From Jimgerdemannia flammicorona (lineage: Eukaryota): a DNA stretch of 64,000 nucleotides. Location: the NCBI GenBank assembly GCA_003990765.1, contig RBNJ01000006.1:1-64000 (forward strand), written 5' to 3'. Under the pieces are notes generated by a model that saw only the letters and a list, made by a program, of their open reading frames with translations, had not been told where the DNA came from and did no database searches. Shown piece after piece: positions 2,489-56,371 of the stretch (position 1 is the first letter of the stretch; each line of letters starts with the position of its first letter). Position numbers and translations under genes: made by a program.

Positions 2489-4541
2489 TTTAAGTATACG
2501 ATCTCTAAGTTACTAAAATTACACATTACTCTCAGAAATTATCTGTCAGATTATGAAGCTGAGTAAAATCAAAGTCACAGATTATAAAGCTGAGTCAACT
2601 CAAAGTTACAGAATATAAGATTTATAAAAATAGAATCTTATCAATCAGAACTAAAAGTATATATATCAAATATATAGTATATCAAAACAAGAAACTACAA
2701 TAAATAATAACTATAACTCTCAATTATACACTCAACTATAACTACTGAAGTCTACAACTGCATCTGTGCTAATATTTGAAATATTATTATCAATTAGACC
2801 ACAGTATCTCTATATCTCATAAATATCCATAGTCTAGCACCTCTCTATTTTGTAGAAGCTCAATAGAATACCCTAAATATACTTAGTGAGACCTACTAAA
2901 TCAGACAAATCTCAAGCTATTATTAGATCAGCTGACTCTTGGAAGATATGGTTAACTATCTCTATAATACAGATATTACCAAAATGTCTTAACATCAGAA
3001 ACTCATTGCCAATAAATACTGAGAGCTCTTCTATGAGTATAGTATTTTTATTTTCTGTCTCCAAGTTACTACTACTGAAATGATTGCTATCCTAACCTAT
3101 GGCCAAATCGATGACATAGTATGAGAATTCAACCACAAGTATATTGAGTATACTCAAATCATAGACAGACTCTTCTTATATCTAGATAACTATATTCTAC
3201 AAATATCTTAAGTTAGATATGTTATAAAGATTATCTATGATATAATCTAGTTTGATAATAATGAAGCTAAAGACAATAATCTCTCTGATACCAATATGAT
3301 CTCCAGCCAAGGATCTCTGCTAATGTTGATCACTCCACCAACCTTGCTGATGAACTTACAACCGTTTATATTATATATAAAACCTATTGGGATAATGACT
3401 ACTGGTGTAAGTACTAACCTATATTCATATCTGACTACTTTAACTATATACGTATAATGAGGAGATTAGAGAATATAACCTATACCTCCAGACAACTCTC
3501 AAGATAGAACTAAAAACTCTACCTTCTAAGTATAAGCAGAATGAAGAACAGCTTCCAGTATATTATAACTCTGCAATACATAGTACTATAACTTATCAAA
3601 GATATGCTGATACGTATGTAGTAAATCTAATGAAAGTAGAGATAATATATCTCTTCTCTACCTATCTACACCCTACCCAATATATAAGACAGATGATACC
3701 ATCCTGTAGAATAGTGATATGGTCTCAATATATATATTACTATATGAATAAATAGAGAGATATAATTCAAGAATGTTCTTTCTAGATGACTACTTCATCA
3801 GAGATAATATCATTGATAGTGATCTTATTAAAGAATATCTAAATAGTATCTAAACCTATAAATAGCATAACAGTTATTAGTATAGTTAGATTAGCCTTAT
3901 TCTATATAACTGTATTCTAACTCAGCAGTTAGTTGATCTCTTGATATATCAGTTCACACTTATACTATGTGACTATATTCTAATTTATCAAAGTACTAAG
4001 TACTATATCTATATTTAGTATAGTCCAGATAGCCTCTCATTAGTATAAATATCTGCTCTCTCAAATCCCAGAAACTCAGATAAGAATATAGATATGAATA
4101 AGTCAAGAATACTCTCTATATAAATATTTCTTTACATACTACTCCTAGTATTAGCCAATAGCAATATTATAAATAGTGAATAAATTTATTTAATAACTCA
4201 CAAATTACTCTTAAGTAAAACTATACTATACTAGGTCTCACTTCTAACTAGATTCTGAAATTTCCTAATTGAGTATTGTCTATAGTGATATGCTGATTCA
4301 ACTAAGCTGATCTTAGTTTCTTGAAATTCCTAAAATATAAAAAATTCTAAATATCTAGAATAAGTTCAAGAAAGGACTTTAGTTGAAATATTGACTCAAT
4401 CTTGAAATCAATAAGTATAGAGGATGTTCTCTATATGAAATTGATCTTGATCTTAAGAAAATAGTCTTCTAGAATATCCAGAACTTTCTGAAAACCCTTT
4501 CAGAACTATATAATGATACTCTAATAAAGTACCCTCTTAGA
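2489..4541 (+). repeat. 5' LTR of Gypsy family A
   Basis: Colinear with 13796-15851 and with the reverse complement of 42298-44316; differences are mostly transitions. TATA-like TATAAATA near 4045, AATAAA near 4180. Confidence 0.92.
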
Positions 4542-4544
4542 ACT

Positions 4545-4556
4545 TGGTAGTAGTGA
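4545..4556 (+). promoter_or_regulatory. Putative primer-binding site (tRNA-iMet-like, decayed)
   Basis: TGGTAGTAGTGA 3 bp after the LTR end; resembles TGGTAGCAG of an iMet PBS with C>T decay. tRNA identity is inference. Confidence 0.55.
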
Positions 4557-6509
4557 TTTACAATTTTATTCTGCTTCAAGATATTTCCTCACCTAACTAT
4601 AACTATCTACAGAAATTCCTATAAGTTAGTATAAATTCCAATTACTAAACTGGAATTTATTCTGAACTATCTGACAATCTGAAGTGAATTGAACCTAATA
4701 TATAAGGATAATTAGACCTCTACACCTATAATAAGTGAGACAAGCTTTATATATATAAAGAGTACTCTAATTAAATCAGCAAATAGGCAAAACTCTATTC
4801 AATAAACTTCTTACTCTATACCCTGTAAGTATAGAAGTCTTCTTTACTCTTCTCAATAAGAGTTTTATAAGTTCTATATACTTAAGCAATCTAGAACAAC
4901 TACAGGTATCTTCCTAATCTTAATTCCTTATGAAGCACAAGCCTCTATAGTCAGTGGCTCAACTCTACTAACTATCACCATACCAGGACCAAGGCTGCCC
5001 TATACTATTATTTCCAGAATTACAAGACCCATCATATTTTTAAAGAAGAAGTCAGAGAAACTCTTTACCAATAACCAGACTCTGAGCCAGAAGCAGGCCC
5101 AGCTACAACCTTACCTAAACCTAAAGTAGAACCAGAACTAGCTTTTGATTTAAGCCTATCTCAAATCTGATATATAACAGATACCATCTACTTCAATACT
5201 GAACAAACTCAGCTACATAAAGACTAAAGCAAAGAAGAGAAGGAGTATCTCATTAAATTTGATTCTGGATATACTGATAAAGAAGATACACCTTCTTTTA
5301 GATAAAACACCCCTACAGAATAACAGATAGTTATCTATTAAGCTCTTATACCAGACCTATAACAGTTACTCTAGCAACTCCCACAGACTCAGAGAACACT
5401 ATATATCAAACTCTATACTAGTACCTCAAGTTATACCAGTAACCCCACTATCAGTAGTTCAACTATCTCCAGTAAACAATATGACAAACTAGTAAATTCT
5501 AGACCTCAGCACTCAGATAACTATAATGGTAGCAACTATCACTACCCTAGCTAAACAGACTAGACCAATAAAGAGCTGGAGTCTACCTATCTTTAATAGT
5601 ACTACATAGAAAGTTCAAAGCTTTATTAGTATAGTTAATACTAACTTGAAAGCCAATCAATAGATAAACAAGTGAGTTACTAACTATCTTCTGATAAATA
5701 ACCAAGACCACACTATCAAACAACTCCTTGCTATTATTACAGCTTATATTTATTAAGTTATTACATTCTTCTATGGATCTGCTGAAGAATGATAGCAAAC
5801 CTTTTCTGAAAAACTCTTCATATGGGATATCCAACTAGTAGTTGTTACCCAAAATGTAACATATAGTGCCCTGGTATATAGAGACCACTTTATGGTCTCT
5901 GGGCTCAAATAACTCATAATTACTCAATATTAAAGTGAAACTCTGATTATGAAATCTCAAGTAAAACTCTACAATCTCAAATTTGATATATATGGTAAAA
6001 AGGAATTTGAAACCTTCTATATAAAACTCAAGTCACTCCTAAATACTATTGATCTATAAAATGAACTATTTATTCAATGTTCTATCAGAATAGCTTATAG
6101 AAAGATCTGAGAACAAGAATACCTAGTTGATTATAATTACCCACAATGATGCCTGATAAGAATCAAGACTATAGTCAAGTAAATTCTAATAGCAGACCAA
6201 TTCTGCCTTAAAAACAATTCAATAATATGGAAAAATTCTGAACTAAGAAAGAAGAACTCAAGCATAAAGCATCCTGAGCACCTTCTATATCTATCTCTTA
6301 GATACTCTGAAATTCTGAACTCACCCAGCTGAGTATCTTTTAGAAACTCACTGAAGGAGAAAGAAATGAACTCTGAAAAAGTTGAGTATGCTTCTACTAT
6401 TAAAAGAGAGAATATATAGCCAGTACCTGCTCTAATCAAAAACTCTGAACAATAATATGAGCTACTGTTATTACTCTATACTACTTCAATAATCTGACTA
6501 CCAAGATAC

Positions 6510-8492
6510 TAGACTTTGTCAAGTTAAGGATAACAGCGATGGTCTCCATCTACCAAGACAGCTATCTCTGATATATCACATATTATACAAACACATACCA
6601 ACTACTTTTACACTATTCTTTGGGGAAGCATCTTAAGAACATATCCTTGAAACAGAGTTCAATAGAGTATACTGGGTAGGATAGCTCTAGTGCATTTGGC
6701 TGGCAGTATGTGGGGAGGGGTCAGGGAGCAGGGTTGGAGATACTAAGCACTTTGGTAAATGAAAAGGGGGTTGGCAATAGTGAAGGAGAAGGCAAGATAT
6801 AGCCAGGAGAGAATCAGATGAGCATTACTGAGAAGGTCAAGCAGGGGAGTCTGATAGCTGGACTGAATAAATGGCTGTAGGGGGGCAAAGAAAAGACTAC
6901 TACTGAGGGACTGAGGGGGGCTCTCTTGGGAGTATCTGGTGGAAGGATCAGTTGTATAGTAGCTAGGGGTGTGACTCTTGATGGAGTAGTAACTGGTAAT
7001 CTAGAAAAAAATTCAGATATAACTGCTGATAGTGGGGCTGAGAAGATGGGGCCTGGCCAGATGGGAGATCTGATAGATGGTATAATGAGTCTGGTAGTAG
7101 CCCCATTACTTAAGAAGTTGATCTCAGAGTTCACAGTCACTTTGTACTTCCAGGGCTTAGCAGTAACAATGAAGATAGTCTTGAGGATGATTGCTAAGCA
7201 GATGGATAGTACAGTATCCATAAAGTTCCTGAGGGGTTTGGAAGGAGTAAAGGTAGATTTTGAGAAGACTGGATCATTGAAGGCCATGCTGAAGGCAGGA
7301 CTGACTATTGGGAAGATATGTGTCCTGATAGTATGATGTTTAAGATGGAACCCCAGAGTGGTACAGCTTCTGGTGAAAGGCATATCTATGGTAACTGCTA
7401 TAGAGATGAGGAGGAGAGTTGAGGAGATTATAGCTAAGTATAGAGAGGTAGTCGATGTGGGGTTTCAGGTCTGGAAAGGAACCTCATTCAGAATAGGAGA
7501 TATTGATATCTAGATTTAACTGGCTAAGAGGGAGGCTATTAAGAATATTCATTATTGGCCATTAGTGATAGTATAGGGGACCTTTTGATGAGGGTGAAGA
7601 GGAGTGAGAAGGAGGAGGAGGAGGAGGATTTGTTGACTTTTGGTTAGTAGTTGGAAATTGACTAGATGTTATGAGGAGAGGAGATGGGGAGCAGGATAGA
7701 TGGGAGGATCTGAGAGTTAGATTGATAGAGGGGGTTGGGAAGGAGTGGCTCACTATGGGTTGGGTGTTGGCTATATGGATGGGGCTAATGGGATACTGGT
7801 TATTTGTTTTTGAGAAAGGGAGATGCTTGGGGTTGAGGGAGAGACTATTGTGGTGAGAAGGATTAATAGAGGATGTCTTGATGAGCTGGTGGCTGGGATG
7901 GGGTCTGCAGGGCAGTCAGAGATATTGTTTGATAGAGAAAATTTGTGGGTAGAGTAGAGAGAGAGTTAGAGTAGTGAGTGGTAAGATAGTATTTAAGTGT
8001 GAGAGTGTGGGAGAGGGGGGGCCTAGGGGGATTGGGTAGTGGGAGAGAGTACTGTACTTATATTGATAGACTGGTAATAAATGACAAAGAAAAAAAAAGA
8101 AAAAAAACAGCTATGGTTTTAACTAAAGAAGTCAAAAAGTAGCTGGATATGATTTATATATAGCTGAAAAAGTTATAGTTTTCTAACTGAGAATTCAAGC
8201 AAGTCTATATAGGAATCAGTATTCAAATTTCTAAAGAATATATTGGAAGGATATGCTATTACAGCAGTCTAACATTAAAAAAACTCTCAGTAGAAGGAGG
8301 AGTTATTGATAAAGATTATATAGGTAAAATCATTATCCTCATCTGAAACTATAGTTAGACACTATTCAAGATCTCTATCAGTTATTGTATTGTATAGATT
8401 CTATTTGAGAAAATTAAATCAATTCTGATAGTTAAGAAAGTTTCTGAATTATTATATTCTATCTAAGGATTCAAAGGATTTGGTTCATCAAA
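6510..8492 (+). pseudogene. dUTPase domain of element A, interrupted near its start by a LINE (6544-8105)
   Basis: LDFVKLRITAMV before the LINE; after it AGYDL, decayed motif II (YSSLT), EGGVIDKDYIGKI (motif III) and KGFGSS (motif V). Confidence 0.85.
6544..8105 (+). mobile_element. Internally deleted L1/Tx1-like LINE (5' part of ORF1 joined to the ORF2 tail and 3'UTR, poly(A))
   Basis: ORF 6926-7336 aligns with ORF1 26280-27002 (APLLKK..EFTVT). ORF 7671-7856 aligns with the ORF2 C-terminus 31345-31541 (EWLTMGWVLAIWMGLMGYW vs EWLTLDWALAIWVGLAGHW). AATAAA plus A-tail; TSD AACAGC(G/T)ATGGT at 6532-6543 / 8106-8117. Confidence 0.88.
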
Positions 8493-9301
8493 TAAGGCTC
8501 TGGCTCAACCTACTATAAATAGAGAGGAATAATTCTATAGAAAAATTGAAGATAGATTTGTACCAAGTGACCAATATCTCTATAGTATTGGAATATACTC
8601 TTCTCAAATAATTGATGATTACTTCACTTATATCAATAAGTTAGCCTAATGAAGAACTAAAAGAAGGAAACCTCTTATAACTAAAATCACTACCATTGAA
8701 TCAGACAAACTGCTAAGTATATATTACTCTCCAAATTATACCACTTCTTTATAATGAGATCATCCCTGAGACTCTATAGTTAAAACTATAGAACCTTATG
8801 ATCAATTGGATAAACTATTCTTTGATCATCAAGAAAGAATTCCACAACTTCAAACTATAAAGCAAAAGAGACTCACTCAGTTCAGCAATCCAGACTGAAA
8901 GTTTACTCATATCAATAAACTACAACTTAAGAAATTAGCTAAGAAATTTGCTCTCTTTGCTATTTCTATATATCTATCTAAATAAGAATCTGAGAACCTT
9001 GAGGAAGACTTTTCCAAAGTCAATTGTCATATTAGACCCTTACTTCAGAAATTCTGAGATATATTCCCAAAGAAACTTCCTAAAGATCTACTACTAAAAT
9101 GAGCTATTGACTATACAATCAAAACTATTCCTAATGCCAAGTCAGTCTTTAAGTCAATCTACTATATATCTCTTAGCAAAATCAATATACTCAAGAAAGA
9201 GATTGATGAGCTTTTAGAATTAGGATTAATTAGACCTAGTATATTACTATATAGTACACCAGTTCTCTTTATCATCAAAAAAGGAGAAGACCTCTGAATA
9301 T

Positions 9302-10776
9302 TGTCACATAGTGGTTGCTGAGTTCCTCAAATATGCCAGTTTCTCTTCAAGGTGTATCTCTTAGACTAACTCAAGTTTGTTATAAGCAAGTTCTTATTGA
9401 AGTGCCTTCCAAAGGTCATATAGTCCTCAAACTTCTTATCTTTAACTGTCTTGTTATCTCTTAGATTGCTTGCAAGGAAGTATGTATAAGTGAAACCAGA
9501 ACTAACTTTATTTCAGAGGAAATAAGAGGGATATTTATACAAAATATAATTCAATAGTTGCTAAGATATAAAGCTAAATATAATTTCCAATAACTAAAAC
9601 TACTTAAGTTCTAGGATTGGTACTGATGGTTGTATAGGTTCAGAATGCTGGTATAATTCAGTGTCACATCAGAATACCAGTGCTGGAACAATTTCGCATC
9701 ACCTCAGAATACCAGTGCTGGCATTATCCAGTATAACAAAGAACTTAAAGCAGAAAGTTCAGGATTATGGGGGCTTCATCAACATCATTACTGAAGGAGA
9801 TGAGATCTGTGAATTTTTCATTTTTACATGCTTCGATGTTGTGTGGGATGACATCATTACTAATGATATCATCACATTTGGCAGGGAAATCAGGGGCTCT
9901 CCAATCTATGAGGTTCTCTTCCACAAAATAAGGGACAAATGTGGGGTCTTGTGGAGATCTAACCTGGATGCTTGGGCCTTGAAATACTGAGATCAATCCT
10001 TGCAGAAATTGGTCTGGGTTGTCCTGGAGGATAGGATGCCAGAAGTCTTCTACTTCATCACTATTGAGGGTGATAGTGAACTGGGCTTCTGTAGCCACTC
10101 TGGCTTCTAGTGCATTGTTATGGCAGGATGACAGGTCTCTGAAATCTGAGACTCTAACATACTCCAAGTTGGGGATTGACTATGGTGCATGCCTGAAGAT
10201 CTGATAGATCTTCTTAGCTGTCCTCATTTTACATATATCTATAGGAGTGGCATCTTGTAGCTCTTGAGTGCTGGCCTGTGGGAACTCCTGGTAGAGGATG
10301 TTTCCTATTTTGTACTCCTGCCATATTTGAAGGCATTCAGTGGCAATGGTGATCCTTGTTTCCATTTTATAGTGATAGAGGATAAAGTGATAGAGATCTG
10401 CAGTATCCAGGTTAACACTAGGAGTCCTTCTTGAGCAGGTCCTCATGGCTCTTCTGATGTCTTGGAACATCCTTTCCTTGACCAAGATACTTTGGTGGTT
10501 CCTTGATCTTGAGGTTTGGCAAGCAGCAGGCATTTTATTTGTAGTAAGTCTTTGAGCTATTTTGGGATTGGTGGTTCTTATTGGTTGCTGCTACTGTGGT
10601 TCCTTGATCCTTCTTTTATATTCTTCAGGATGCTTGTACTGTGGTCACAATGACTTACAGTTGGTCATCATTGCTCATCTCATATGCTGTATGATCTCCT
10701 TGTGCTCCGATCTGGTGACTTGTGAGAAAAGGTTGTCTCTTGTGCTGATGTCATCATTTCTGAAGTCACTGTTACA
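9302..10776 (-). mobile_element. Solo LTR, Gypsy family B, carrying an ORF in U3
   Basis: TG...CA termini, 4-bp TSD ATAT; removing it restores the host RT frame. Homologous to the LTR at 18241-21219, which is followed by PBS-gag-protease. Confidence 0.88.
9745..10776 (-). pseudogene. ~344-codon accessory ORF in family B LTR U3 (unknown function)
   Basis: One frame from the first LTR base to 9745 that includes track ORFs 10180-10533 and 9745-10167. The four internal stops are TGA/TAG explainable by C>T. Conserved at protein level in 18520-19200. Confidence 0.75.
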
Positions 10777-13700
10777 ATATATATTAACTATCAGGATCTC
10801 AATAAGTAGGCTATAAAAAACTATTATCTACTATCCTGAATTGATAAAATATTTAATAGGCTTACTGACTCACAATTCATAAGCTCTTTTGACCTATGAA
10901 ATAGCTACTGGCAAATTGCTATAAAAGAAGAAGATATTATTAAAACTGCCTTCTGAACTCATTATAGATATTTTGAGTTTCTGGTTATACTCTTTGGCTT
11001 AACCAATACTCTTGCAACCTTCCAGACTCTGATGAATACTATTCTACACCTATATCTAGACAAATTTATTATTATCTATATTGATAATATCCTATTCTTC
11101 AGCAAAACCCTGGAGGAATATCTGGAACATCTCGAACTAATACTACTGAAGCTTTGAAAAAACCAACTTTTTGTGAAATTTAACAAATATAAATTCTCTT
11201 GAAGGAAATTTAATTCCTTAGATATATTATTACTTCTAAAAAAATTAAAGTAGACCCAAGCAAAATCTCCACAATCAAGAAATGGTCCAGCCCCAAGAAG
11301 CTAAAAGACCTTCAGTCTTTTCTAGGATTAGCAAACTATTATAAGTGATTTGTTACAAACTTTATCAAGATTACTACTGCTCTTATCCAAATAACCAAAC
11401 ATAGTAAAAAGAAAGAACAGCTCTGGACTACAAAGTAAGAAAAAGACTTCAATAACTTTGTTAAATAGGAATCTGAACAGGATACAGCCTTTTAAGCTCT
11501 AAAAGATATCCTGATAACTACTCTGATACTTCAAGTAGTGAATCTTACTCTGCTATCTGATATTATTACTAATGTCTCTGACCTAGCTCTTGGAGCAGTA
11601 CTTATATATAAGAAGGAAATATTAGTCATTGTAGACACTTTGATCAAATAGTACCTATATCTTGAAGAAGTATACTTTACTATATTAATAGACTACAAAT
11701 AATTAATCAATATCAAGACCCAGACTATTCTTTTCTAAAAACAAGTCAGATAGATGAAAGTCCTCATTAATTTTGACTATAAAATCCAATACTGCCCAGG
11801 TAAGAAAAATATTATTACTGATATAATCTTCAGACTACTAATCAAAGAAGTCATAAAAACTCTGACCTTGGTTACTAACTCTATTATGGAATAAATTATT
11901 ATAATATGCACTGATGATAAAGCAGCTTAAATACTCTGAGAAATCCTGAACAGTGATAATATTGATAAGTACTCTTAGTATTATCAATACTAATTGAAGA
12001 ATAATACTATCTATAATAAAGATAGAATATATATTCCTAACAATCAAGACCTCTATAGGGCTATTCTGTTTGAATGTTATAATGCTCCTATAGCTGGATA
12101 TTTAGGATTTGGTAAATACTATAAGGTTATTTTTCAAAACTTCTATTAGCTCCATATAGCAGATCAGCTAAAGATTTATATCACTTCCTATAAAGCCTAC
12201 TAATATGTATAATAAGTTCTCAACTCTAGCAAAGCCTAGATTACTTCACTCTATTCCAGTTCTTTCTGCTAATTGAAAAATCACTATAGACTTTATTATA
12301 TAAATACCCTAAACTAAGAATGGGAAAATACAATTGTTGTCATTATAGATTATCATAGCAAACAAGCCCACTTTATATCTATGACTATAACTGTAATAGT
12401 ATCTAAAATTACTATACTCTTATTTGATAATATCTTTTACTAGTATGGTCTTTCTAAGATTATTATTAGTAACTAAGATTCAAAATTCACCAGCTATTTT
12501 TGGAAAGTCCTATATATATATCTTAGAATGAAACTTATACTATCTACTGCCTTTTATCCTGAGACTGATGACCAAACTAAAAGGATGAACTGAACTCTGA
12601 AGCAAATGCTAAGGAACTATATTTGCTATAGGTAAGATAATTGATATGAATATCTTACTACAGCCAAGTTTGCCTACAATATTAGCAAACAAGTCTTCCT
12701 TAGAATGACTCCATTCTTTGCCAATATAGGATAAATCCTAAGCATCTCTCTAACACTTATCAGAATTACTGATATACTCTCTATAGTTTGAGCTGTTGAA
12801 GAATTTCTACTCTAGATATACAACTTAAGCCAGATTGTATTTGAGAATTTATCTTAAGCTTAAGAATAACAATTATAGTATATTAACCAGTACTACTAAG
12901 AAGAAACCTATGATATCAGATAAAAGGTTTTATTAGATATCTGAGGATATCATATTGATAACCTCAAATATAGACTCTCTACAAAGCTGAATAGTAAGTT
13001 AATTGGACCATTTGAGGTCATTATACAAGTCTCTCCAATATCCTATAAATTAGCACTACCAGATATCATCAAGATTCACCCAGCCTTCAATATTCAATAT
13101 CTCAAGCAGTATAATGAAAATGATAATGAACTATTCCCAAATCAAACTACAACACTACCTGTATCTATTATTATTAATAATTAAGAAGAATACAAAGTTA
13201 AATAAATCCTCAACAAATATGGCCACAAGAACTACCCAGAATATCTTATTAAATGAAAATATTATCAGATCCATTATGCCACATGAGAACCCAAAACAAC
13301 CCTCCAGAATACTGCTAACTTAGTTCAAGAATATGACTCCTTGAACTACTAGTTCAAATACTCCAATACCTATCATTTCTATACTATATATTATCCCTCC
13401 TAAATATTATTAAAAGCACTTTTATAAATATCATAAATGAAATCAAAAACTCAGCAAATCAAGATAAGAAATATTGATCCTTTAGAAAAATAGCAAAACT
13501 GAAAGCCAGTCTATTCTCCTCATACTACTGGTGAGAAATGAGATATAGATATTTAAGAAGATTTCTTAGAGAAAATTTTCCAGCAGTATATGATATCAGA
13601 ATCACTTCTGGTATATAGTATTGAATACATGACTCTTTAATATATAAATTCAATACATTAGACAACTATACTATAAGCATACCACTTTCTGAAAAAATGT

Positions 13701-13795
13701 ATATTATTGGACTTTTGACTATCCAAATAATGTAACAATACTAGACCAAATTAAAAGACCTCAATGAGAATGTCAAAAACTAAGAAGGAGAGAGT

Positions 13796-15851
13796 TGTAA
13801 GTATATAATCTCTAAGCCATTGAAATTGTATATTACTCTCAGAATAAATTTAGAAATCACCTATTAGATTATAAAGCTAAGTCAAACCAATGTTATAGAT
13901 CATGAAGCTGAGTTAACTCAAAGCCACAGAATAGAAGATTTATAAAAACAGAATCTTACCAACTAGGACTGAAAGCATATATATCAAATATATAGTATAT
14001 CAAAATAAGGAACTATAATAAATAATAACTATAACTCTTAAATATATACTCAACTATAACCACTGAAGTCTATAACTCTATCCATAATAATATTTGAAAT
14101 GTCATTATCAACTGGGCCACAGCATCTCTGCCTCTCATGAATATCTATAGCCTAGCATCTCTCTATTTAGTAAAAGCTTGATAGAATACTCTGAATATAC
14201 TTAGTGAGGTCTACTGAATCAGACAAATCTCAAGCTACTATTAGATCAGCTATCTCTTGGAAGATATAGTTAACCATCACTATGATATAGATATTACCAA
14301 AATTCCTCAATACTAGAAACTCATCACCTGCAAACACTGAGAGCTCTTCTATAAGTATAGTACTTTTATTTTCTACCTCTGAGTTATTACTGCTGAAATG
14401 ATTACTATCCTGACCTATGGCCAAATCAATGATATGATATAAGAACTCAAACATAAGTATATTGAGTATACTTAAACTACAGATAGACCCTTCCTACATC
14501 TAGACAACTATATCTTATAAATACTCTAAGTTGGATATACTATGAAAGATATCTATAATATAATTCAGTTTGATAATAATGAAGCTAAAGACAATGATCT
14601 CTCTGATACTAATATTATCTCCAGCCAAGAATCTCTGCAAATATTGATCATTCTATCAATCTTACCAATAAACTTACAATAGTTCATAACTGCATATGAG
14701 ACCTATTGAGATAATGACCACTGGTATGATTACTAATTTGCATTTATATCTAACTACTTCAACTATAATGAAGAGACTAGAAAATATAACCTATATCTCC
14801 AGATAACCCTTAAGATAGAACTGATAATCTTATCTCTCAAGTATGAGTAAAATAAAGAACAGTTGCCAGTATACTTCAACCCTGCAATATATAGTGCTAT
14901 AATCTTTCAAAGATATATATACTAATAGCAAATTCAATAAAAGCAAAGATGATATATCCTTTTTCTGCCCACCAATACCCTATCTAGTATATGAGACAGA
15001 TAATGTTATTTAGTTAGATGGTGACATAGTCTCAACATATTAATACAAATTAACAGAGAGATATAATCTAAGAACCACTCTTTCTAGATAACTACTTCAT
15101 CAGAGATGATACATATTATCAATAGTGACCTTATTGAAAAATACCTAGATAGTGTCTAAACTTATAAATACCATAGCAGTCATTAGTATATATAGTTAGA
15201 TTAGTCTTGTCTAATATAACTCTATACTGACTCAATAGTCAGTTGATCTCTTGATATATTAGTTCACACTTATACTATATAACTATATTCTGACTCATCT
15301 AAGTACTAAGTACTATAACCATATTTAGTATAGTCCAGATAGTCTCTTATAGTATAAATACCCACTCTTCCAAACCTCAGAAACTCAGACAAGAACAAAA
15401 ATATAAATAATTCAAGAATACTTCTCCACACAAATATCTCTTTACACACTACTTCTAGTATTAGTCAATAGCAATATTATGAATAGTAAATAAACTTATT
15501 TAATAATTCACAAACTATTCTAAAGTAAAACCATACTATATTAGATCTCACTTTTAACTAGATTCCAAAATTTCCTAATTGAGTATTATTTGCAACAATA
15601 TGCCAATTCAACTAAGCTGGTCTTAGTTTCTTAAAATTCCTAAAATATAGAAAATTCTGAATATTCAGAATAAGTCTGAGAAAGAACTTTTATTGAGACA
15701 TCAATCTAATCTTAAAATAAATAAGTATAGAGGATGTACTCTATATGATATTAATCTTAATCTGAGGAAAATAGTCTTTCAGAATATCTAGAACTTCCTA
15801 AAAACTCTTCCAGAACTATATAATAGTACTTTAATAAAGCATCCTCTTATA
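13796..15851 (+). repeat. 3' LTR of Gypsy family A
   Basis: Starts TGTAAG directly after the PPT; colinear with 2489-4541; followed by the TSD and resumed Copia RT. Confidence 0.92.
14056..15159 (+). pseudogene. ~360-codon ORF inside family A LTR U3 (also ~2739-3852 plus and ~42995-44090 minus)
   Basis: A three-copy consensus by eye gives a continuous frame from ATG ACC ACT (ATG retained in the solo LTR) to ..DSDLIEEYLDSV*; most stops are private to a copy and C>T-type. Small indels in individual copies are possible. Confidence 0.6.
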
Positions 15852-17039
15852 TATATATTTATCATCTATAAGAATATAAAGATAATGATGATCTTATATA
15901 TAAACTGTATAAAAAATTATATAATATCAAGTAAGTAACTCATTTATAGAATAGAAAATTGATAAATATCTTTTTAACAATAGCTACATATATTACAAAG
16001 TAGATAACTATATATATATTCAATACTATACTGATAGAGTAACATTCATAGACATATAGATAGATAATATCATTATTATTATTATAAAAAAACAAGCTTA
16101 ATAGAGTTAAAGAAGTTCTGTATAAAATTCAAAATAACTAATATAGGTAATGTATTCTTTCTTTTGGGAATATCTATTATATATAATAGGAGTATGTATT
16201 CTATATATCTCTTACAGTAAACTTATATCTAAGTTATCTTAAAATAATTCAGTATAAGTAAATATAAGTCTATTAATACTCTTATAGATATGTTTGTAAA
16301 GTTAAAAAAGCCCAAAACAAATAATAATAATAATAATATTCCCTATTAACAAAGTTTGTTCTCTTATATATCTTATACTAGGAATGAGGGCTGATATTTT
16401 ATATACTATAAATAAAATAATATATATAGTACTTATTATACTATAATCATTTATATTAAAGTACTATTAAGAGAATTTTCAGATATATTAAAGAAATAAT
16501 ATACTATACACTCACTCTTGGTAGATTGAATAAGAGTAATAGCAACAATAATAATAATAAGAATAGTATATAACTATCTGATATATGTAATACTGATTAG
16601 ACTAGAGACTTAATGATTATTAATCTATGACTAAGTACTTCTTTTAGTTAAATAACAAAGAAGTTATTTCATGGCAAATATATAAGCAGAATTTAGTAAT
16701 AATATTATATATATAAGTAGAGTACTAAGTATTATCTACTGTAATAAAGAAAGCCATTTGGTTATATTAATTACTAAAAGAGCTACATAGGCTTTAATTA
16801 GAAATGAAACTCTATACTTATCTATTAAAACAACTAGTCTATAATTATTATAGCAAAATACTCTATTATGACTTCAGAATGAAGTATATCAATATATAGT
16901 ATCATTATATAAGAAAGTAAATAGAGAGTAAGACTATACATCTAAAATATATTTCTATAGAGTATATAATTACAGATTTACTTATCAAAGCCTTTCTATA
17001 ATCTAAATTTCAGCAATATACTAAAAAAAATGAGTCTTA

Positions 17040-18240: not shown

Positions 18241-19661
18241 TGTAATAATATATATCTTCAAAATCAGTAATATCAGAATTCAGAAGACTGCCCAGACTTT
18301 GTAAACCACCAATTGCAAATTATGACTCAACCATAACTCATCTTGATTATAAGAATATCTATATCTGAACTTATAATAATTAATGATGACCTCAGTAGTA
18401 TACTACCCGAAATCAGATGACTTTATACTCTAAACTAAAGAAGAAGACCCTTAAGATATAAAAGAAGTAATTAGAAAAAATTATAAGATATAAAATAAGA
18501 GACCTACTATACAAATATATATCTGCTATCTGCCAAATAGTAAATCAGTTCAAGAGTAAATATTTACTATTATTAAAAGAGCCATTAGGTTATATATAAG
18601 AAGGACCCCAAGCCTGAACCTCTATATAAGAGACCTCTACCACTATACTCTCAACTACTGTAAAATGGAAATAAGACCATTACTACTAAGTATCTTTAGA
18701 TATAGTAAGAATATAAAAAAAAAACATTACCTTTACTGAGAATTTTTATAAATTAGCTCTCAAGAAATTGTAGATATTACTTGTATAAATAGATATGAAT
18801 AGAAATTGTTATCAGATCTTTAGATATATATGCTGGACTATTCTCTATCTAGAATATATGAAAGTCTCTAATATTTAAGAACTGATGAGCTACCATGAAG
18901 ACTACTTTGAAGAAATGGTCACAGAAGAAGTCCAATCTACTCTCATAGTCAAGAGTGATGAGGTTCAAGACCTTTGAAACTCTATCCTAGAGAAAAATTC
19001 AGACCAATTTATCTATAGTTTAATTATACTATTTTAAGGCCCTCTCTTAAGAGTCTGTTTCTCTTAGAATTCCACATATATTTCTTACTTTATGGATGAC
19101 AAAACTATTAACTAGAGACCCTAAGAGCCAAATGACTACATATTCTTTAATGATATTATCAATAAGGATATTATTAACAAAACAACTTAGAGAATAGTGG
19201 TGACCCACTTATTTTGCTAAAAGACAATATCAATAACTTTCTAGAAAAGTCTAGAGGCTTACTTTCTTCACTCTCAAAGCCCCCCACTGACTTCAGTATA
19301 ATTGTAAAGAATGCTGAAAATAATTTGGCCAGACCTCTTGAAGAGAAGAAGAATGAGAATGATATAATCCTCATTACTGAATTTTAAGTTAAATGAGAAT
19401 AGATCCATTAGTCAAATTGAGTAAGTGAGTTAGTTAGTCACCTAGATTCCAAAACTATACTAATTAGTATTTTCTAGTAATTATAAGTTATAACCAATTA
19501 TCTAGTCTTATATATAGTCTGAAAACTATATAAATACCTCTTTGATCTATAGTAAATAAACCTCAGTCAATTGGTTTGCAATACTAACTTAAGTTCTGAA
19601 AGACAAGAAAGTCAAGTATAAGAACTTTAGAAAAAAAACTCCAAGAGCTAAAGAATTACTC

Positions 19662-19665
<4 letters not shown>

Positions 19666-19699
<34 letters not shown>

Positions 19700-27998: not shown

Positions 27999-28029
27999 GC
28001 TGGGGTCTCTATTGCAACATTCCTTCAAA

Positions 28030-31541: not shown

Positions 31542-31555
31542 GGGTGGGGGCTGGG

Positions 31556-31867: not shown

Positions 31868-31932
<65 letters not shown>

Positions 31933-32519: not shown

Positions 32520-33038
32520 AGTTATATATCATCCCAATAAGTATAAGCAGCTTCTACATCTATATCTGTTCCATCATCTTCATTATCTGTACTATGTTCA
32601 CTCCATTCTAAAGACTGTTCTTCTTTCTTAGAAAATAGGATCTCAACTTAGTAAATGATACTGAGGTAGGTGGGCAGGGTCATTCTTTAGAGATCATTTA
32701 GGGAGAACTGGGCCTGGATTAGAGCCGAAGGGTTTTATTTATAAATTGTATATAATCTTTCTACAGTGGTAGTATTCCTTCTGTTCAGGCCAGTGGTATT
32801 GTAGACATAGGTCAGGTCTGAGAGGGGAAGATTCTGCAATTGTTCTCCAATTACATAGTAGGTCTACAGCTGGTGGACCTGGAGTAGTCTCTTGGCCAGA
32901 GTGAGGTTTTCTTGATGGACCTGGATTCTTTAGAGATATGTTCCATTGGGCTCTCAGAACTGTGACAGGAGAACTGGTAGAACTTGGAGAGAATCAAGGA
33001 CAAGAGTCTGAAGGCAGTTGTCAATTCTCTGGTTCATA
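32520..33038 (-). pseudogene. Accessory ORF downstream of integrase, family C copy 2
   Basis: MNQRIDNCLQTLVL...TYYVIGEQLQNLP...ERLYTIYK*NPSALIQAQFS...; colinear with 53032-53547. Confidence 0.75.
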
Positions 33039-44316: not shown

Positions 44317-46119
44317 GATATTTGAGCTTACTTTACTTAAAATACTCCTTGTGATCAGTATACTATCAGATCTGAAAATCCATCAAATAGATATTAAGAC
44401 AGAATTTCTGAATATTGATATAGATACTAAACTATATAACTGTCAACTGCAAGAATATAAAAAAGGTAATCTTGTATACAAATGATGTAAAGAACTATAT
44501 GGTATCAAACAAGTAGTATAACTATCAAGTAAAAGAATTGATAAATATCTCCTTGATAATAGATTTACTTGCTATGAAGCAAATAATTGCATATATATCC
44601 AGTACTATAATAATAGTAGTATAGTCTTTATTAGTATCTGGATTGATGATATAATTATTATTATCAGCAAAAATAAGCTTAATAGAGTTAAAAAAGCTAT
44701 ATGCTGAGAGTTCAAGATAATAGATATGTGTGATGCATCCTTTCTTTTGAGGATATCTATTATATATAATATAAATATTATGACAAACCAGAATGTACCA
44801 TCTGAATTATACCTTAGCTAGATGACATGAATACACAGCATAGTAACCAGTAACCATTGCTACAGAAACTGTATAAATAGTCAGACTATCAGATAAGGTA
44901 TATCTGTGCAGGACCTGCACACCTGTGCTGGACCTACACACTTGTGCTGGACCTGCACAACTTGCCATAGATAGCAAATCTATAGTTAGCCACATAGTAA
45001 CCAGATAGTAACCAACTTGTATAAATTACTCCAGAGATAAGAGTAAATAAACCTCAGTTCAAAATACAAACCAAAGAAGCCTCTAAAGATTGAGTATTGG
45101 TCCCTTATTCCACTCTGGTCTACTTTCCAATACAAAGATTGATTTGTACACTTACCAGACTAAGCCTGAAGATTTGCTGTCAAAAGTTCAAGGAATAACT
45201 TTGCCACTTTTTGAAGAATTCAAGTTTTCACTGCCATTCTTACCACAAGCCAGTCTTTCTGATGTAACTTTGCAGTGGAGCCAGTCTATGATATAACCCT
45301 GTGCAAACAAAGTCAGTCTTTGATATAACTTACCAAGAATCCTAGTTAATTCCCAGTTGAAGCCACTGATTTAAGAGAATCTGTGTCATCTGCTATTTCC
45401 AAGTTATCTGCCATATTTTCAGTTGAAGCCGCTGTTTTCAAGAAGTCTGCCAATTCAGGAGAATCTGCATCATCTGCTGTTTTCAAGTTATTCACATTCC
45501 CAGAAGAACCCATGCTGCCTGAGCTATTATTTTCAGAAGAATCCTATTTGCGCCATCTGAGTAGTATTCCCAATTAAAGCTGAATCTGTGACATCCAAGT
45601 TGGTTGTCCCCAGTGAGCCAGAGTTATCAAGTTATCTACTGCCAGGATAATTCCCAGTAAACCTGCACCCAAATCGAGTTATCTATCAAATTATCAGAAT
45701 GACCCAAATAAGGAATCCACTTGCACTATACAAGATCGGCATATAGAAATTGTATAAGAAGAACCACTAAATTGTCAGACCATTATGCACAGAGATCATT
45801 ATGCTACACAGAAATCACTTGCTACTCAAGAAGGAAACCGCTTGTACTACATACAAATTCTGCCATTCCCAGTTGACCCAAGAAGGAAACCCATTCACAA
45901 ATCGCTGCTACACCCAGAGAACTATCCCAATTAGGAAATCAACACACAAATCACTTGCAGATATCCAGCTTTGACTATTATATATACCACTAAACACCAA
46001 GGACCTCAGGAATCTTAGAATATTTTGTTGCTTTTTGACAAAGTAACTGGGGGCTCAAGCCAAACTACATCAACCCCCAATCTTGTAATTTGCCTCCATT
46101 GAGCCAGGCATGTTACATT

Positions 46120-50669: not shown

Positions 50670-53047
50670 CCACCAACATTGGAGAAGAACTGACACCTCA
50701 ATAACAGCAACAACTAGTAGAACTTCTCAACAAATATCAAGATATCTTCACCACTGATTATGGCAACCTGCTATACAACCCATCATATCACCACAGCATA
50801 AATACAGGAAGTGCAACACCCATCCAGCAGAAGCCCTTTAGAATACCTATCACTTGAAAACATTCAAAAAAGAGCACATTTAAGAACTCTTAGACAATAG
50901 AGTCATCCGACCCTCCACTAGCCCCTGGGCCAGCCCTATACTTATTGTACCAAAGAAAGGAGGATGGAGACTCTCCAGATACTTCAGCAGTATGGACCTC
51001 TTCACAGGATTCCATGAGATCCCCATGGACCCCAAGGACATTCAAAAGACAGCTTTCCTTGCTCTAGGAAAACTGTTTGAATACCTCCAAATGCCCTTTG
51101 GACTCTGCAATACACCCCCCATCTTTCAGAGGATGATAAATTCAGTCTATGTCTCCTTGATCCACTACTGCCTGATTATATATATGGACGATTCCAACAT
51201 CTATTCAGCGAATTTCAAAGAATACCTGCACCACCTAGAGGAATTCTTCAAGCTCACCCGCAAGAATCACTTGAGATTGAATACAAAGAAATGCTACTTT
51301 GGGAAACAGAAACTCGAATTCCTGGGATTCATGGTTTCAAAAGAAGGAACTTATGCAGACCCAAAGAAAACCAAGAAGATCAACAATTGGCCAGTACCCA
51401 AGACTCCAAAGGAAATACTATCATTTCTGATGCTAGTATCCTACTACAGAAGGTTCCTCAAGGACTTTGCCCAAATCACTGCCCTGATCTGAATCCTTCT
51501 CAAGAAAGGAATGCCATTTAAATGGACAGAATCACAGGAAAAAGCCTTCAGAGAACTCAAGAACCATATGACTACAGCACCAATCCTTGTACACCCCAAT
51601 CTACAGAAGCCATTCATCTTGTATATAAATGCTTCCAAAGATGGCCTAGGAGCAGTTCTAGCCCAAGAAGGACCTGACCAACAGCATCATGTGATAGCTT
51701 ATGCAAGCAGAGCTACCAATCAGCAGCAGGTGAACTATAGTAGCACCAAACTGGAATGTCTTGCAGTCATATGGGCAGTCATCCTGTTCAAGCATTACCT
51801 CATCAGAAAAAGGTTCACCCTGATCACAGACCATACAGCCCTCAAATAGCTATTCAATTGCAAGAAACCTGCTGGAATCCTAGTCTGCTAGATCCTTATC
51901 CTTCAGGATTACAAAATCACATTTATTCACAAAGCAGGAAAACCCACAACAATGTTGATGTACTTTCCCACCAGCCCCAATGAACCAGAAAAAGGGTGTC
52001 CTGAGGAACCACACCCTAAAAAAAGCTCAAGGAATAAGAAGATCTCATCTGACAAGAACATCAGAAAGCCCACTAAGGACAGACAAGCACAGAAGATAAG
52101 ATTCAAAAACAATATCAACATTGGCCCTACCTCAGAACCCAAGTATAAGATATCATTCAAAAATGTGATGTCTGCCAGAAGTACCAAGGAAAGAAGAACT
52201 ATCAAGTCTCTCTGCAACTGATTCCCCCATCTACTCACATCTTTCAAAGATGGGGAATAGATGTAATTGGACCTCTACCAGTTACACCAAGAAGAAACAA
52301 ATATATCCTTATATTTGTAGAACATTTGACCAAGTGGCCTGAGGCTTTCCCAATAGAAATCACAGATGCCTTAACCATTGTAGGCCTCCTCTATGGACTT
52401 ACACTCAGATATAGACCCCCAGAAGAACTCATTTCTGACAAAGGCATAGAATTCATCAATAACATAATCATAAGTTATGTCTGAATTCACAAGATCCACC
52501 TCAAAAGAATCACATCATACTACCCCCAGACCAATGGCATGACAGAGAGAATAAACCAGACCATCAAGAAAGGACTTGCCCAAGTCAATCCTACTAATTG
52601 GGACCTCTGCTTACCTGAGATCCTATGGGAAATTTGGAACACCCCTACCATCTCTACTAAACAAAAGCCATTCAAAATGATGTTTGCTAAGAGAACCAGA
52701 ACTGCTGACCATGAGAATCTTGAAGACCTCTTCAAAAAGACAGAACAGTTACATAATCAAGCCCAAGGACAGATTATCAAAGCCCAAGAAAGACAAAAGA
52801 AGTACTATAATCAAAAACAGAAGGATCAGAAGATCAAGATTGGAGATCAAGTACTAGTTTGGAGAAGTATGATTGAAACAAATTTTGCTGCCAAACTGAA
52901 ACCCAAATGGGAAGGACCTTATCTTGTATACAACATCAGAGGGACCAGCATCTATTTAAGAAGCATGAATGGATAAACCCTCAGAACACTAGTACACATC
53001 AATTGCCTCAAGATATATCTTTTCCCACATCATGAATCAGAGAGTTG
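50670..53047 (+). pseudogene. RT - RNase H - integrase of element C1
   Basis: [85 protein letters not shown]. The IDYRKLN segment is deleted near 50975 relative to C2. Confidence 0.93.
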
Positions 53048-53547
53048 ACAACTATCTTCAGACTCTTATCCTCAGCTCATTTCAATCACTACTGGTCCCC
53101 CTACCCTAATTCTGAGAAGTCAATGGGAATACTCTCCAAAAGATCCAGATTCATCAAGAGAATCTTGTCCTGGCCAGACAATTGCTACAGGTCCATCAAC
53201 TTCAGACCCACTATGCAATTGGGAAATAATTGCAGAACCTTCTAGTCTCAGAACAAACATATATCAGAAATACCACAGAACTATCAAGGAGAGATGTTAC
53301 TGCCACTAACAGACTCTACACCCTTTACAAGTGAAACTCTGCAGCTCTGATGCAAGCACAATTCTCCTGATATGATATACAAGGAATGAACCTAGCCACC
53401 TATCTGAGCATTATCAATGCTGTTGAAATCTTATTCCCTGAAAAAGAAGAAGAACCCTTAGAATGGAGTGATCATGGTATAGATGACAAAGATGATGGAA
53501 CAGGTATTGATGCAGAAGATGCTTACCCATACTAGAATGATGATTAA
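53032..53547 (+). pseudogene. ~170-codon accessory ORF between integrase and PPT (unknown function)
   Basis: ATG overlaps the integrase end in another frame; single frame with C>T-type stops; acidic C-terminal tail; protein conserved with 32520-33038. Confidence 0.75.
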
Positions 53548-54290
53548 AGGATAGTCTGAGGACAGACCATCCTTTAGTGGGGGCTGATGTGACAAACCAG
53601 GATGTACCACCTGAATTATACCTTAGCCAGATAACATGAACACACAACATAATAATCAGTAACCATTGCTGTGGAAACTGTATAAATAGCCAGACTACCA
53701 GATAAGGTATATCTGTGCAGGACCTGTACACCTGTGCTGGACCTATATACTTATACTCGACCTGTACAACTTGTTATAGATAGCAAATCTATAGTTAGCC
53801 ATATAGTAATCAGATAGCAACCAACTTGTATAAATTACCCCAGAGACAAGAGTGAATAAATCTCAGTTCAAAATACAAACCAAAGAAGTCTCTAAAGATT
53901 GAGCATTAGTCCCTTATTCCACTCCAGTCCACTTTCCGATACAAAGATTGATTGGTACACTTGCCAGACTAAGCCTGAAGATTTGCTGCCAAAAGTTCAA
54001 GGAAGAACTTCACTACTTTTTGAAGAATTCAAGTTTTTGCTGCCATTCTTACCACAAGCCAGTCTTTCTGATACAACTTCACAGTGGAGCCAGTCTATGA
54101 TATAACCCCATGCAAATGAAGCCAGTCTTTGATGTAACTTGCCAAGAATCCTAGTTAATTCCCAGTTGAAGCTGCCAATTCAGGAGAATCTACATCATCT
54201 GCCATTTCCAAGTTATCCACCATATTCCCAGTTGAAGCTGCCGATTCAGGAGAATCTGTGTCATCTGCCATTTCCAAGTTATCCACCATA

Positions 54291-54662
54291 GAGTACTCCC
54301 AAATGAGTCAAATCATTTCGAATCAAATTGAATTGAGGGTTAAATGAGTCAGGATTTTTCAATTCGAATCAATTCAAATCAAATCAAAAGTCAAATCAAA
54401 TTGAGGGTCTGATTCAAACCCTAATTTTCAAAATGCAATAACTCAGCGTAAACTCTTCCAAATCTAATGTACCTTAGCTTGTTAGAATCACATTAATGCA
54501 TTGAATCTAACAAGCTAAAATACGTTAAATTTAGATGAGTATTTGTCGAGTTATTACATTTTGAAAATTAAGGTTCAAATCGAACTTTGAATCAAATTGG
54601 ACCTTTGACTCGATTCAAATCGAATCAAATTGGACCCTTGATTCGATTCGTTGGGAGCACTA
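54291..54662. mobile_element. MITE copy 3 (hAT-like, foldback)
   Basis: TIRs GAGTACTCCCAA / TTGGGAGCACTA; 8-bp TSD CCACCATA / CCGCCATA; absent from the 5' LTR of the same element. Confidence 0.92.
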
Positions 54663-56371
54663 CCGCCATATTCCCAGTTGAAGCCGCCATTTTCAAGAAG
54701 TCCACCAATTCAGGAGAATTCACATCATCTGCCATTTTCAAGTTATCTATGTTCCCAGAAGAACCCATGCTGCCCGAGCTATTATTCCCAGAAGAATCCT
54801 ATTTACACCATCTGAGTAGTATTCCCAATTGAAGTTGAATCTACAACATCTGAGTTAGTTGTCCTCAGTGAGCCCGAGTTATTAAGTTATCTGCTACTAG
54901 TACAATTCTCAGTGAACCCACACCCAAATCAAGTTATCTGCCAAATTATCAGAATGATCCAAATAAGGAATCCACTCATGCTATACAAGATCATCATGCA
55001 GAAATTGCATAAGGAGAACTGCTAAATTGCCAGACTGTCATATACAGAAATTGTTGCACTATACAGAAATCACCTGCTACTCAAGAAGAAAACTACTCAT
55101 ACTACATACAAATTCAGCCATTCCCAGTTGACCTAAGAAGAAAACCTATTCACAAATTACTGCTATACCCAGAGAACCATCCCAATTAGGAAATCAACAC
55201 ACAAATCGCTTGCAGATATCCAGCTTTGACTATTATACCACTAAACACCAAGGACCTTAGGAATCTTAGAACATTTTGTTGCTTTTTGACAAAGTAACTG
55301 GGGGCTCAAGCCAAACTACATCAACCCCTAACCTTGTAATTTGCCTCCATTGAGCCAGACACATTACAATATATATACTATATACTTCTTATAAGTAATA
55401 TATGTTCAAACAATTCTCAAATATTTCAATATGAATAAATATAAGTCTGTCAGCACTCTTATAGATACTTTCATGAAGTTAAGAAAGCCTGATACTATTT
55501 CTGAAGATGACAATAATATATAAGCCAAAAATGATATCAAAGATATACTATATCAGTAACTAATTAGTTCTCTTATATATATATCTCATACTAGGAATAA
55601 GACCCAACATAATGTATACTATAAATAAGATAGCACAATATTCCTCCTACTATGATAATTTATATTAGAGTACCATTAAGAGAATATTTAGATATCTTAA
55701 GGATATGACATACTATATACTTATATTAAATAATAGTAATGGTGAGAGAAATAATAAGAAGAATGACATCTAACTATCTAGTATATATGATACAGATTGG
55801 GCAGGTGATCTCAATGACTACTAATCTATAACCAGATATCTATTTCATATTAGCAACCAAGAGTCTGTCATCTTATGATAAATATATATATAATTATCTA
55901 AAGAAATATTATTAATATAGACAAAATATCAGGCATTATCATTGGTAATAAAAGAAGCTATTTAGCTCTATTAAAAGAACTTGGATTCACTCAAAAACAG
56001 AGCACTATGCTATACCAAGATAATTAGTCTATAATTATACTTACTAAAAATCTGATATATTATAGTAGAATAAAATATATCAATATACAGCATTATTTCA
56101 TTTATAAATATATAGAAAACAGTGTTATATACTTGAAATATATCTCAATAGAGTACATAGTCACTGATTCACTTACAAAAGTCCTTCTAAAACTAAAGTT
56201 CAAGCTATGTATTAACAAAATGGATCTTATGAACAATATGCCAGTTTAGTAGTTAATTATGAGATACTTTTCAGGCCCTAAAAAGTCTCTCTTACTGTAT
56301 TTACATTATTTTTACATTATTTATATCCATATCTTACATTCTCATTACATCTCTTATCTATGAGTGGATTT

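Follow-up and report, generated by a model that had tools for sequence, protein, structure and literature searches.

The 64-kb stretch of DNA analysed here (contig RBNJ01000006.1, positions 1 to 64,000; below, the window) contains at 9302-10776, on the minus strand, a complete and precisely inserted repeat of the long terminal repeat (LTR) type, the U3 region of which holds a self-contained gene. The repeat is copy 1 of a family termed B; a diverged copy 2 begins at 18241, and Gypsy elements of another family, A, are present in the same window. Comparison with related sequences makes it well supported that the LTR-borne gene is real and has been under purifying selection while residing in such repeats. 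The copy of the gene in the window is, by its sequence, dead. The favoured reading as a whole, a selected gene in the U3 of an LTR, transcribed into an mRNA from its own promoter and related to an accessory gene of family A, is regarded as probable.

Extent of the gene

The LTR-borne gene and the sequence upstream of it comprise the following features.

9745..10533, minus strand: LTR-borne gene, 262 codons from ATG at 10533 to TAA at 9747-9745, inactivated by TAG at 10182-10180
10534..10776, minus strand: leader, the non-coding 5' part of U3, 243 nt with three in-frame stops
10613..10620, minus strand: TATAAAAG, a candidate promoter for the LTR-borne gene, situated 87 nt ahead of the ATG and kept in copy 2 and in a related metagenome locus (L001)

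Read from 10776, the frame runs over 343 codons to the TAA and contains four internal stops, three of which fall within the first 81 codons. The preliminary description of this frame, with its start at the terminal TGT, its four stops and its end upstream of a TATA box, was accurate. It had also considered the frame open from the first base of the LTR, and this view is not sustained. The leader measures 243 nt in copy 1, which puts the LTR start in frame with the start codon, and 278 nt in copy 2, where the two are not in frame. Between TATAAAAG and the start codon, copy 1 has 87 nt, L001 has 65 nt and copy 2 has 62 nt; the differences of 22 and 25 nt are not multiples of three. L001 harbors an intact open reading frame (ORF) of 323 codons, which begins with Met-Pro-Ala; 21 codons before its ATG, the same frame contains a stop. 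The Met-Pro start is common to the window copy, L001 and the proteins P0002, P0008 and P0009. The first 75 nt or so of the unit (10702-10776) showed the lowest coverage among family contigs aligned at 80% likeness. The conserved ATG, the stops in the leader and leader lengths that do not differ by triplets place the gene at 10533-9745 instead of at the first LTR base, and the open beginning of the frame is a coincidence of copy 1. Start and stop codon both lie inside U3, upstream of the LTR TATA at 9539.

The internal stops had been characterized as C>T-type. This carries no weight, since TGA and TAG can always be derived from a sense codon by a single transition. Of the four, just the one at 10182-10180 is assignable; the position is occupied by Trp (TGG) in all six homologues covering it.

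Nucleotide and protein searches with the leaders of 243 and 278 nt revealed no significant similarity to pol or to any other sequence. A promoter and terminator scan found four signals against 3.8 expected by shuffling, a result that is not informative, the scan being bacterial in design.

Evidence for purifying selection

A word-indexed homologue search yielded six proteins with 48-83% identity to the window frame. HMMER searches over all lengths gave six representatives of 138-342 residues at E <= 0.001 among 1,835,955,588 proteins; no homologue exceeded 342 residues, and no fusion to pol or to other domains was found. All protein relatives are located on metagenome contigs of 0.5-4.8 kb (the longest 4848 bp); P0009 and P0012 are encoded on those of 4.8 kb and 2.4 kb. 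Intact metagenome relatives comprise 171-342 residues, with two forms of 323 residues (L001/P0017 and P0015). Intact ORFs are maintained at 35-83% identity, and indels among them involve only whole codons and only the variable tail.

Copy 1 and L001 share 62% nucleotide and 53% amino-acid identity over 262 aligned codons. The Nei-Gojobori method (NG86) gave a proportion of non-synonymous differences (pN) of 0.289, a proportion of synonymous differences (pS) of 0.709, which is near saturation, and a ratio of non-synonymous to synonymous substitution rates (dN/dS) of 0.167 on a codon alignment that was guided by the protein alignment. Shifted frames of the same alignment served as controls and resulted in dN/dS of 1.06 and 1.43. 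Differences per codon position were 0.36, 0.26 and 0.52. The purifying selection proposed earlier is thereby confirmed against a relative from outside the window. It also holds in a count restricted to transversions, which deamination does not affect: codons with a single transversion comprised 12 synonymous and 15 non-synonymous cases at an expected synonymous share of 0.159 (binomial p = 4e-4).

Among 12 listed of 34 indels in family contigs, 11 fall in the non-coding tail (9376-9604) and one, seen in a single contig, in the ORF. The variable C-terminal part contains a skip of 69 nt (23 codons), and an 86-nt skip occurs in one low-depth contig.

Architecture and insertion of the LTR unit

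The unit, the interrupted host gene and the remaining parts of the LTR are located as follows.

9302..10776, minus strand: family B unit, copy 1, very likely a solo LTR; 1475 bp, TGT...ACA, ATAT duplicated at 9298-9301 and 10777-10780
9103..9297, plus strand: interrupted host reverse transcriptase, left part, recognized in translation
10781..11214, plus strand: interrupted host reverse transcriptase, right part, with Pfam RVT_1 at 10834-11214
9507..9539, minus strand: LTR core, TATAAAT at 9539-9533 and AATAAA 27 nt later at 9512-9507; U5 extends to 9302
9646..9740, minus strand: U3 spacer between the gene and the LTR TATA, with an 18-nt motif present twice, about 35 nt apart, as read by eye

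On its own strand, the unit begins with TGTAAC at 10776 and ends with GTGACA at 9302, which provides TG...CA termini and a short terminal inverted repeat. It interrupts a plus-strand Gypsy element within the reverse transcriptase. Insert and duplication together amount to 1479 nt (1475 + 4, or 3x493), and both flanks lie in one frame-1 translation of the host reverse transcriptase; the insertion was therefore clean, with a target duplication of 4 bp. Domains of the host element comprise dUTPase (8185-8490), RVT_1 (10834-11214), RNase H (around 11470) and an integrase SH3 domain (12975-13112).

The interior of the unit is ordered as in an LTR. About 180-200 nt of U5-like sequence follow the poly(A) signal up to the unit end. 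A module of TATAAAT, about 20 nt and AATAAACCTCAGT is present in copy 2, in L001 and in the LTRs of the full-length Gypsy family A. The spacing of TATAAAT to AATAAA(CCTCAGT) is 20-27 nt in the family A LTR, copy 2 and L001, to which copy 1 corresponds less exactly; their layout, TATA followed by AATAAA, is that of copy 1. In the U3 spacer, family members vary by repeat units of 33-35 nt, as seen at joints among sequencing-run contigs. Tandem Repeats Finder reported only a 12-nt period (9560-9583) for the unit. Terminal direct repeats inside the unit, of the kind present in terminal-repeat retrotransposons in miniature (TRIM), were not found.

Searches with nhmmer, applying a three-sequence profile and single sequences, identified the two family B copies in the window, which are unpaired; there was no third copy or 5' LTR and nothing else at E < 0.009. 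A family B element with two LTRs around gag-pol was not found in the window. A scan of metagenome contigs for related DNA yielded a single locus of 1345 bp (L001), and scans of genome contigs and viral contigs yielded none. The repeat is abundant in four sequencing runs, in which contigs aligned to the unit at a likeness of at least 80% comprised 1800, 412, 214 and 44 pieces; relatives at 80% likeness were abundant in the two soil-metagenome runs among these. A link of family B to a Gypsy pol is suggested indirectly by the probably related accessory gene and the LTR core motif in common with family A, and its assignment to Gypsy and to fungi is plausible but likewise indirect.

18241..19665, plus strand: family B LTR copy 2, diverged and heavily decayed, recognized by nhmmer and by similarity to copy 1

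Copy 2 had been described as encoding the same protein, and this was corroborated by tblastn with 38-41% identity to copy 1 over 122 and 82 residues (68-69% in blastn); the peptide pairs quoted for the two copies are visible in the translations. The gene remnant at about 18519-19390 has ATA in place of the ATG, many stops and one frameshift. A moderately purine-rich stretch precedes the copy, and a Gypsy pol on the same strand lies upstream, separated from it by 5 kb of other repeats. The 3' end was lost to a run of 31 T and a foreign insertion. The run (19666-19697) ends the copy about 100 nt short and is followed by GC-rich foreign sequence to about 21000; together they resemble the tail of a poly(A) retroposon in reverse orientation.

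Accessory gene of family A, a probable relative

Family A is represented by a full-length Gypsy element on the plus strand and by a second, minus-strand element.

44781..46117, plus strand: family A 5' LTR of the full-length Gypsy element, followed by a primer-binding-site-like TTTGG...
53590..55368, plus strand: family A 3' LTR, with a G-rich polypurine tract in front of it and a foreign insert of about 360 bp (54292-54647) inside
53032..53544, plus strand: family A accessory gene, 171 codons between integrase and polypurine tract, ending 45 nt before the 3' LTR; 6 stops
32525..33037, minus strand: second copy of the family A accessory gene, 171 codons; 6 stops

The element is ordered protease-dUTPase-RT-integrase (RT, reverse transcriptase), and the accessory frame begins right after the integrase. 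The two copies of the accessory gene are 70% identical without any indel over 513 nt. Their dN/dS is 0.149, in comparison to 0.70 and 1.41 in shifted frames. Eight metagenome homologues were found, four of them full length (169-183 residues). Two stops are common to both copies, and intact homologues carry Arg at both codons, which suggests recurrent CGA-to-TGA changes, a signature of CpG deamination, rather than inheritance from a dead ancestor.

Profile searches connect the two accessory genes. The family B profile, run over the six-frame translation of the window, found its best non-self match at 32917-32714 (independent E-value, iE, 0.0064) and another at 53173-53328 (iE 1.3); both are situated just upstream of a family A 3' LTR. 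Conversely, the family A profile had as its best non-self match the coding frame of the family B gene (10356-10177, iE 0.0056). An alignment of both profiles by hhalign reached E 0.0027 when 2 sequences were used and 8.9e-4 when there were 10; the probability was 11-23%. Helices in the AlphaFold model of the family B protein span residues 48-84, 90-97, 101-114, 118-123, 129-133 and 137-151, and those of the family A protein 34-69, 72-82, 86-100, 103-107, 113-118 and 121-134. When shifted by a constant 15 residues, the offset also of the hhalign alignment, the six predicted helices of the two proteins coincide. Homology of the two genes, of which that of family A lies outside the LTR and that of family B within it, is probable, though not proven. 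No open frame was found in the part of the family A 3' LTR that was translated in three frames, and neither family A LTR was matched by the hidden Markov model (HMM) of the family B gene.

A dUTPase is encoded between protease and RT in both Gypsy families (8185-8490 and 49977-50255; Pfam E 3e-12; 31% identity between the families). The nearest ESM Atlas clusters of the family A protease ORF belong mostly to Basidiomycota, at weak scores of 0.81-0.82.

Two further repeats are associated with family A LTRs. The 3' LTR of the minus-strand element is split into pieces at 25290-25959 and 31978-32252 by a block of about 6 kb (26000-31970) with a GC content of about 50% and a GC skew of +0.4 to +0.58. 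Both of its strands contain ORFs of 169-278 codons, none of them matched in Pfam, and a tandem duplication of 111 nt is present at 31547-31768; related G-rich sequence occurs at 6970-7165 and at 17-84. The repeat of about 360 bp inserted in the plus-strand 3' LTR (54292-54647) is also present at 40780-41145 and 22801-23153. Matches between the copies occur in either orientation, a pattern suggestive of a small foldback element or one resembling a miniature inverted-repeat transposable element (MITE).

Protein properties and structure

In the family B protein, a basic N-terminus is followed by a helical domain, and the tail is acidic. The net charge of the first 40 residues is +5 to +8 in three of the five proteins computed. 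Over the whole protein, four of the five carry a charge of -20 to -36, and the most distant one, P0011, carries -5. Four family A proteins have a total charge of -12 to -16, and the positive start and acidic tail are found in both families.

Nine family B sequences, including two ORF pieces from the window, matched no credible Pfam family at E up to 1; the highest-ranking rows, DUF1366 (E 0.21, 11.8 bits against a cut-off of 23 bits) and others at E 0.06-0.36, all lay below the cut-off. The ESM Atlas contained no named relative of the LTR protein; the best match was an unnamed cluster (0.91). For neither family did Foldseek find a match to the model in PDB or BFVD at E <= 0.001; Spo0J headed the list (E 0.7).

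The AlphaFold model of the family B protein has a mean predicted local distance difference test score (pLDDT) of 58, with residues ~70-160 at 85-94 and a disordered C-terminal stretch of 100 residues; the family A model averages 70. In VIA-align, residues 70-154 of the family B model had ParB/SopB/KorB/VirB DNA-binding domains as neighbors (Z 2.8-3.9, 7 of 50 rows), and residues 55-137 of the family A model had the same ParB-type neighbors (Z 3.6-4.1, 5 of 50 rows); these values of 2.8-4.1 lie below the chance level of the tool for helical models, and the two models are not independent. The best Z overall were 3.9 and 5.0, the latter from a row covering a long helix pair only (residues 1-55). 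ParB/SopB/KorB/VirB helix-turn-helix (HTH) domains are weak best-ranking fold neighbors of the helical domain in both models. The family proteins differ from them in having no sequence similarity and neither a CTPase nor a dimerisation domain, so the resemblance is a lead and not a membership. A capsid- or Gag-like chain was not among the fold lists obtained, which does not exclude one.

Proposed expression, function and origin

U3 is ordered as TATAAAAG, a leader of ~55-85 nt, the conserved ATG, the ORF (262 codons in copy 1 and 323 in L001) and the repeat spacer, followed by the LTR TATA and AATAAA. In the favored reading, any LTR, whether 5', 3' or solo, could give rise to a monocistronic mRNA of ~1.1 kb that starts after the upstream TATAAAAG and is polyadenylated at the signal of the LTR itself. 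The genomic RNA would carry the gene as well, in its 3' U3. Because AATAAA is only 27 nt past the LTR TATA, genomic transcripts from the 5' LTR are expected to start at or beyond it, whereas the transcript of the gene would contain it. Being on the LTR side of the polypurine-tract boundary, the family B gene would be duplicated at both ends of the element.

A tentative suggestion for the product is a nuclear regulator of the element that binds DNA or chromatin and acts by transactivating the LTR or by counteracting silencing. It is derived from the basic N-terminus, the six-helix domain with its weak ParB/KorB-like HTH resemblance and the acidic disordered tail. The most conserved block, residues ~165-215 of L001, may be a partner-binding segment.

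With regard to its origin, the gene would belong to the same accessory-gene lineage as the 171-codon gene of family A. It is conceivable, but doubtful, that a Gypsy clade, probably of basidiomycetes, possesses a conserved accessory gene for a small nuclear regulator and that the LTR boundary of one lineage was shifted past this gene, making it a part of U3. Such a shift could have occurred, for example, by use of a new polypurine tract upstream of the gene, with the promoter of the gene carried along. Since no leader similarity was found, a boundary shift has no direct support. If it took place, each insertion would copy the gene to both ends, and many solo LTRs would contain an autonomous promoter-gene-poly(A) cassette. 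The host genome would be seeded with hundreds of potential sources of a transactivator or anti-silencing factor, a counterpart of sag in mouse mammary tumour virus (MMTV) and tas in foamy viruses.

The earlier view of an accessory gene inside the U3 of an LTR-like unit, present in a solo copy, stands. Its spread by solo LTRs was loosely worded: solo LTRs are dead ends of recombination, although they each retain the promoter-ORF-poly(A) cassette.

Alternative explanations

Several points weigh against the favored reading. No family B element with paired LTRs was seen, so the LTR status of the unit is read from its architecture, and is on these grounds very likely. The upstream TATA, TATAAAAG, is a conserved motif only and hence a candidate promoter. 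The synonymous differences approach saturation on an alignment that followed the protein. Homology between the accessory genes of families A and B is weak, as seen from the low hhalign probability and HMM scores of 8.8 and 9.4 bits. The ParB-type neighbors do not rise above chance in models that depend on each other. Finally, the most conserved block (L001 ~165-215, equivalent to 10040-9890 in the window) has a pLDDT of only 43-62, whereas the helical domain is less conserved and yet confidently modelled.

It is scarcely credible that there is no gene at all, and that the frame is a chance ORF or reflects the conservation of cis-regulatory (enhancer) sequence only. U3 regions are indeed regulatory and the window copy has stops, but the excess of third-position differences and the dN/dS of 0.17 appear in this frame only, synonymous transversions are in excess, and several ORFs have remained intact at 35-83% identity with whole-codon indels confined to the variable tail. 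Together with the confident model of the N-terminal domain, this frame-specific constraint refutes the idea. A different objection concerns the unit, which might be not an LTR but a small non-autonomous element, or the 3' portion of an element, accessory gene plus LTR, that moved by another route. This is unlikely. The TGT..ACA ends, the 4-bp duplication and the clean insertion contradict it, and without internal terminal repeats the unit is not of the TRIM type. A retroposed mRNA would lack the ~180 nt of U5-like sequence past the poly(A) signal, and the TATA/AATAAA module is common to bona fide LTRs. The objection draws on the lack of paired copies around gag-pol in the window and on the related family A gene, which sits outside the LTR.

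The gene could also be a fragment transduced from the host and carried as an idle passenger, its constraint inherited from the host gene or from domesticated copies. No known family or function has been assigned to it, and LTR elements occasionally capture host sequences, as stated in a review on plants (PMC7264820). Nevertheless, this origin is quite unlikely. Copy 1 and L001 are found in the same LTR context, with the leader motif upstream and TATA/AATAAA downstream, which implies that their nucleotide divergence of ~31-38% accumulated inside LTRs at a dN/dS of 0.17. Only 6 representatives were present among 1.84 billion proteins, on contigs of 0.5-4.8 kb and without a longer cellular homologue, and a related gene occupies the 3' end of a second Gypsy family. 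Very unlikely, and largely refuted, is a frame that begins in the internal region and crosses the polypurine tract into the 3' LTR in the manner of HIV nef, so that the solo LTR would contain its 3' part. The preliminary description had proposed such an entry; in its favor, the LTR start of copy 1 is in frame and just three stops occur in the 81 upstream codons. The start codon, however, lies 243 nt inside the LTR behind a conserved TATAAAAG, the distance between the two varies by 22 and 25 nt between copies, and the leader frame is not kept in copy 2 (278 nt). An in-frame stop precedes the ATG of L001, Met-Pro is kept as the start in 5 sequences, conservation is lowest in the initial ~75 nt of the LTR, and a homologue of more than 342 residues did not appear in the HMMER search over all lengths.

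Other elements in the window

Besides the Gypsy elements, three Copia-type fragments were recognized by Pfam RVT_2 and integrase SH3-like domains (1500-4700, 13700-16040 and 42380-44616). The first and second run collinear with each other, ~11.31 kb apart throughout.

Comparison with known systems

Additional ORFs (aORFs) between pol and the 3' LTR are known from plant LTR retrotransposons; they are described as conserved within lineages and of unknown function (PMC7264820). The family A gene (53032-53544) occupies exactly that position. The family B gene differs by its location inside the LTR, and no sequence relationship exists to the env-like or antisense aORFs of plants. In the accessible text of the same review, the phrases 'in the LTR', 'within the LTR' and 'inside the LTR' occur 0 times (PMC7264820). 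Fungal Gypsy elements of the chromovirus type are described with a dUTPase, reported to lie between protease and RT in PosPlaTy3-5 from a basidiomycete, as in both families here, and with an 'add. ORF' of unknown function; the portion of that text consulted neither states the position or sequence of the additional ORF nor describes an ORF residing in an LTR (PMC2864245). The 'crapaud' elements of Podospora have LTRs with variable 5' halves, for which no ORF is described in the sections seen (PMC10787394). An LTR retrotransposon with a gene inside the LTR was not found in searches of the literature; figures or supplements may place the 'add. ORF' (PMC2864245), and absence from print is not proven.

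The gene of family B lies within the LTR of an element that is probably of the Gypsy type and not a retrovirus; such a layout is otherwise familiar chiefly from a few retroviruses. LTRs are usually treated as non-coding control regions and are masked by annotation pipelines. Solo LTRs, commonly counted as inert scars, could remain expression units for a trans-acting transposon protein. With the family A gene just outside the LTR, the two families form a natural pair for studies on shifts of LTR boundaries and on the origin of accessory genes, which is an open question in the path from retrotransposon to retrovirus. Both orphan families (262-342 and ~171 residues), having no Pfam or structural assignment, represent a testable new class of accessory proteins.

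The closest parallel in geometry is MMTV sag, an ORF of ~300 codons situated wholly in the U3 of an LTR of ~1.3-1.5 kb and present at both ends of the provirus as well as in solo LTRs. The ORF of family B likewise lies wholly inside U3. No sequence or family match to sag was obtained (Pfam, E up to 1), and the carrier is here probably a Gypsy retrotransposon of a fungal host; the family B protein is predicted to be soluble, helical and acidic. Accessory genes at the 3' end that overlap U3 are also represented by nef of human and simian immunodeficiency viruses (HIV/SIV) and by bel/tas-bet of foamy viruses, which use an internal promoter. Genes of the nef and bel type start upstream of the polypurine tract and run into U3. 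The family B gene resembles them as a 3'-terminal accessory gene overlapping U3, for which a promoter of its own and a role in transactivation are possible; it differs in that both the start codon and the candidate promoter are located inside the LTR.

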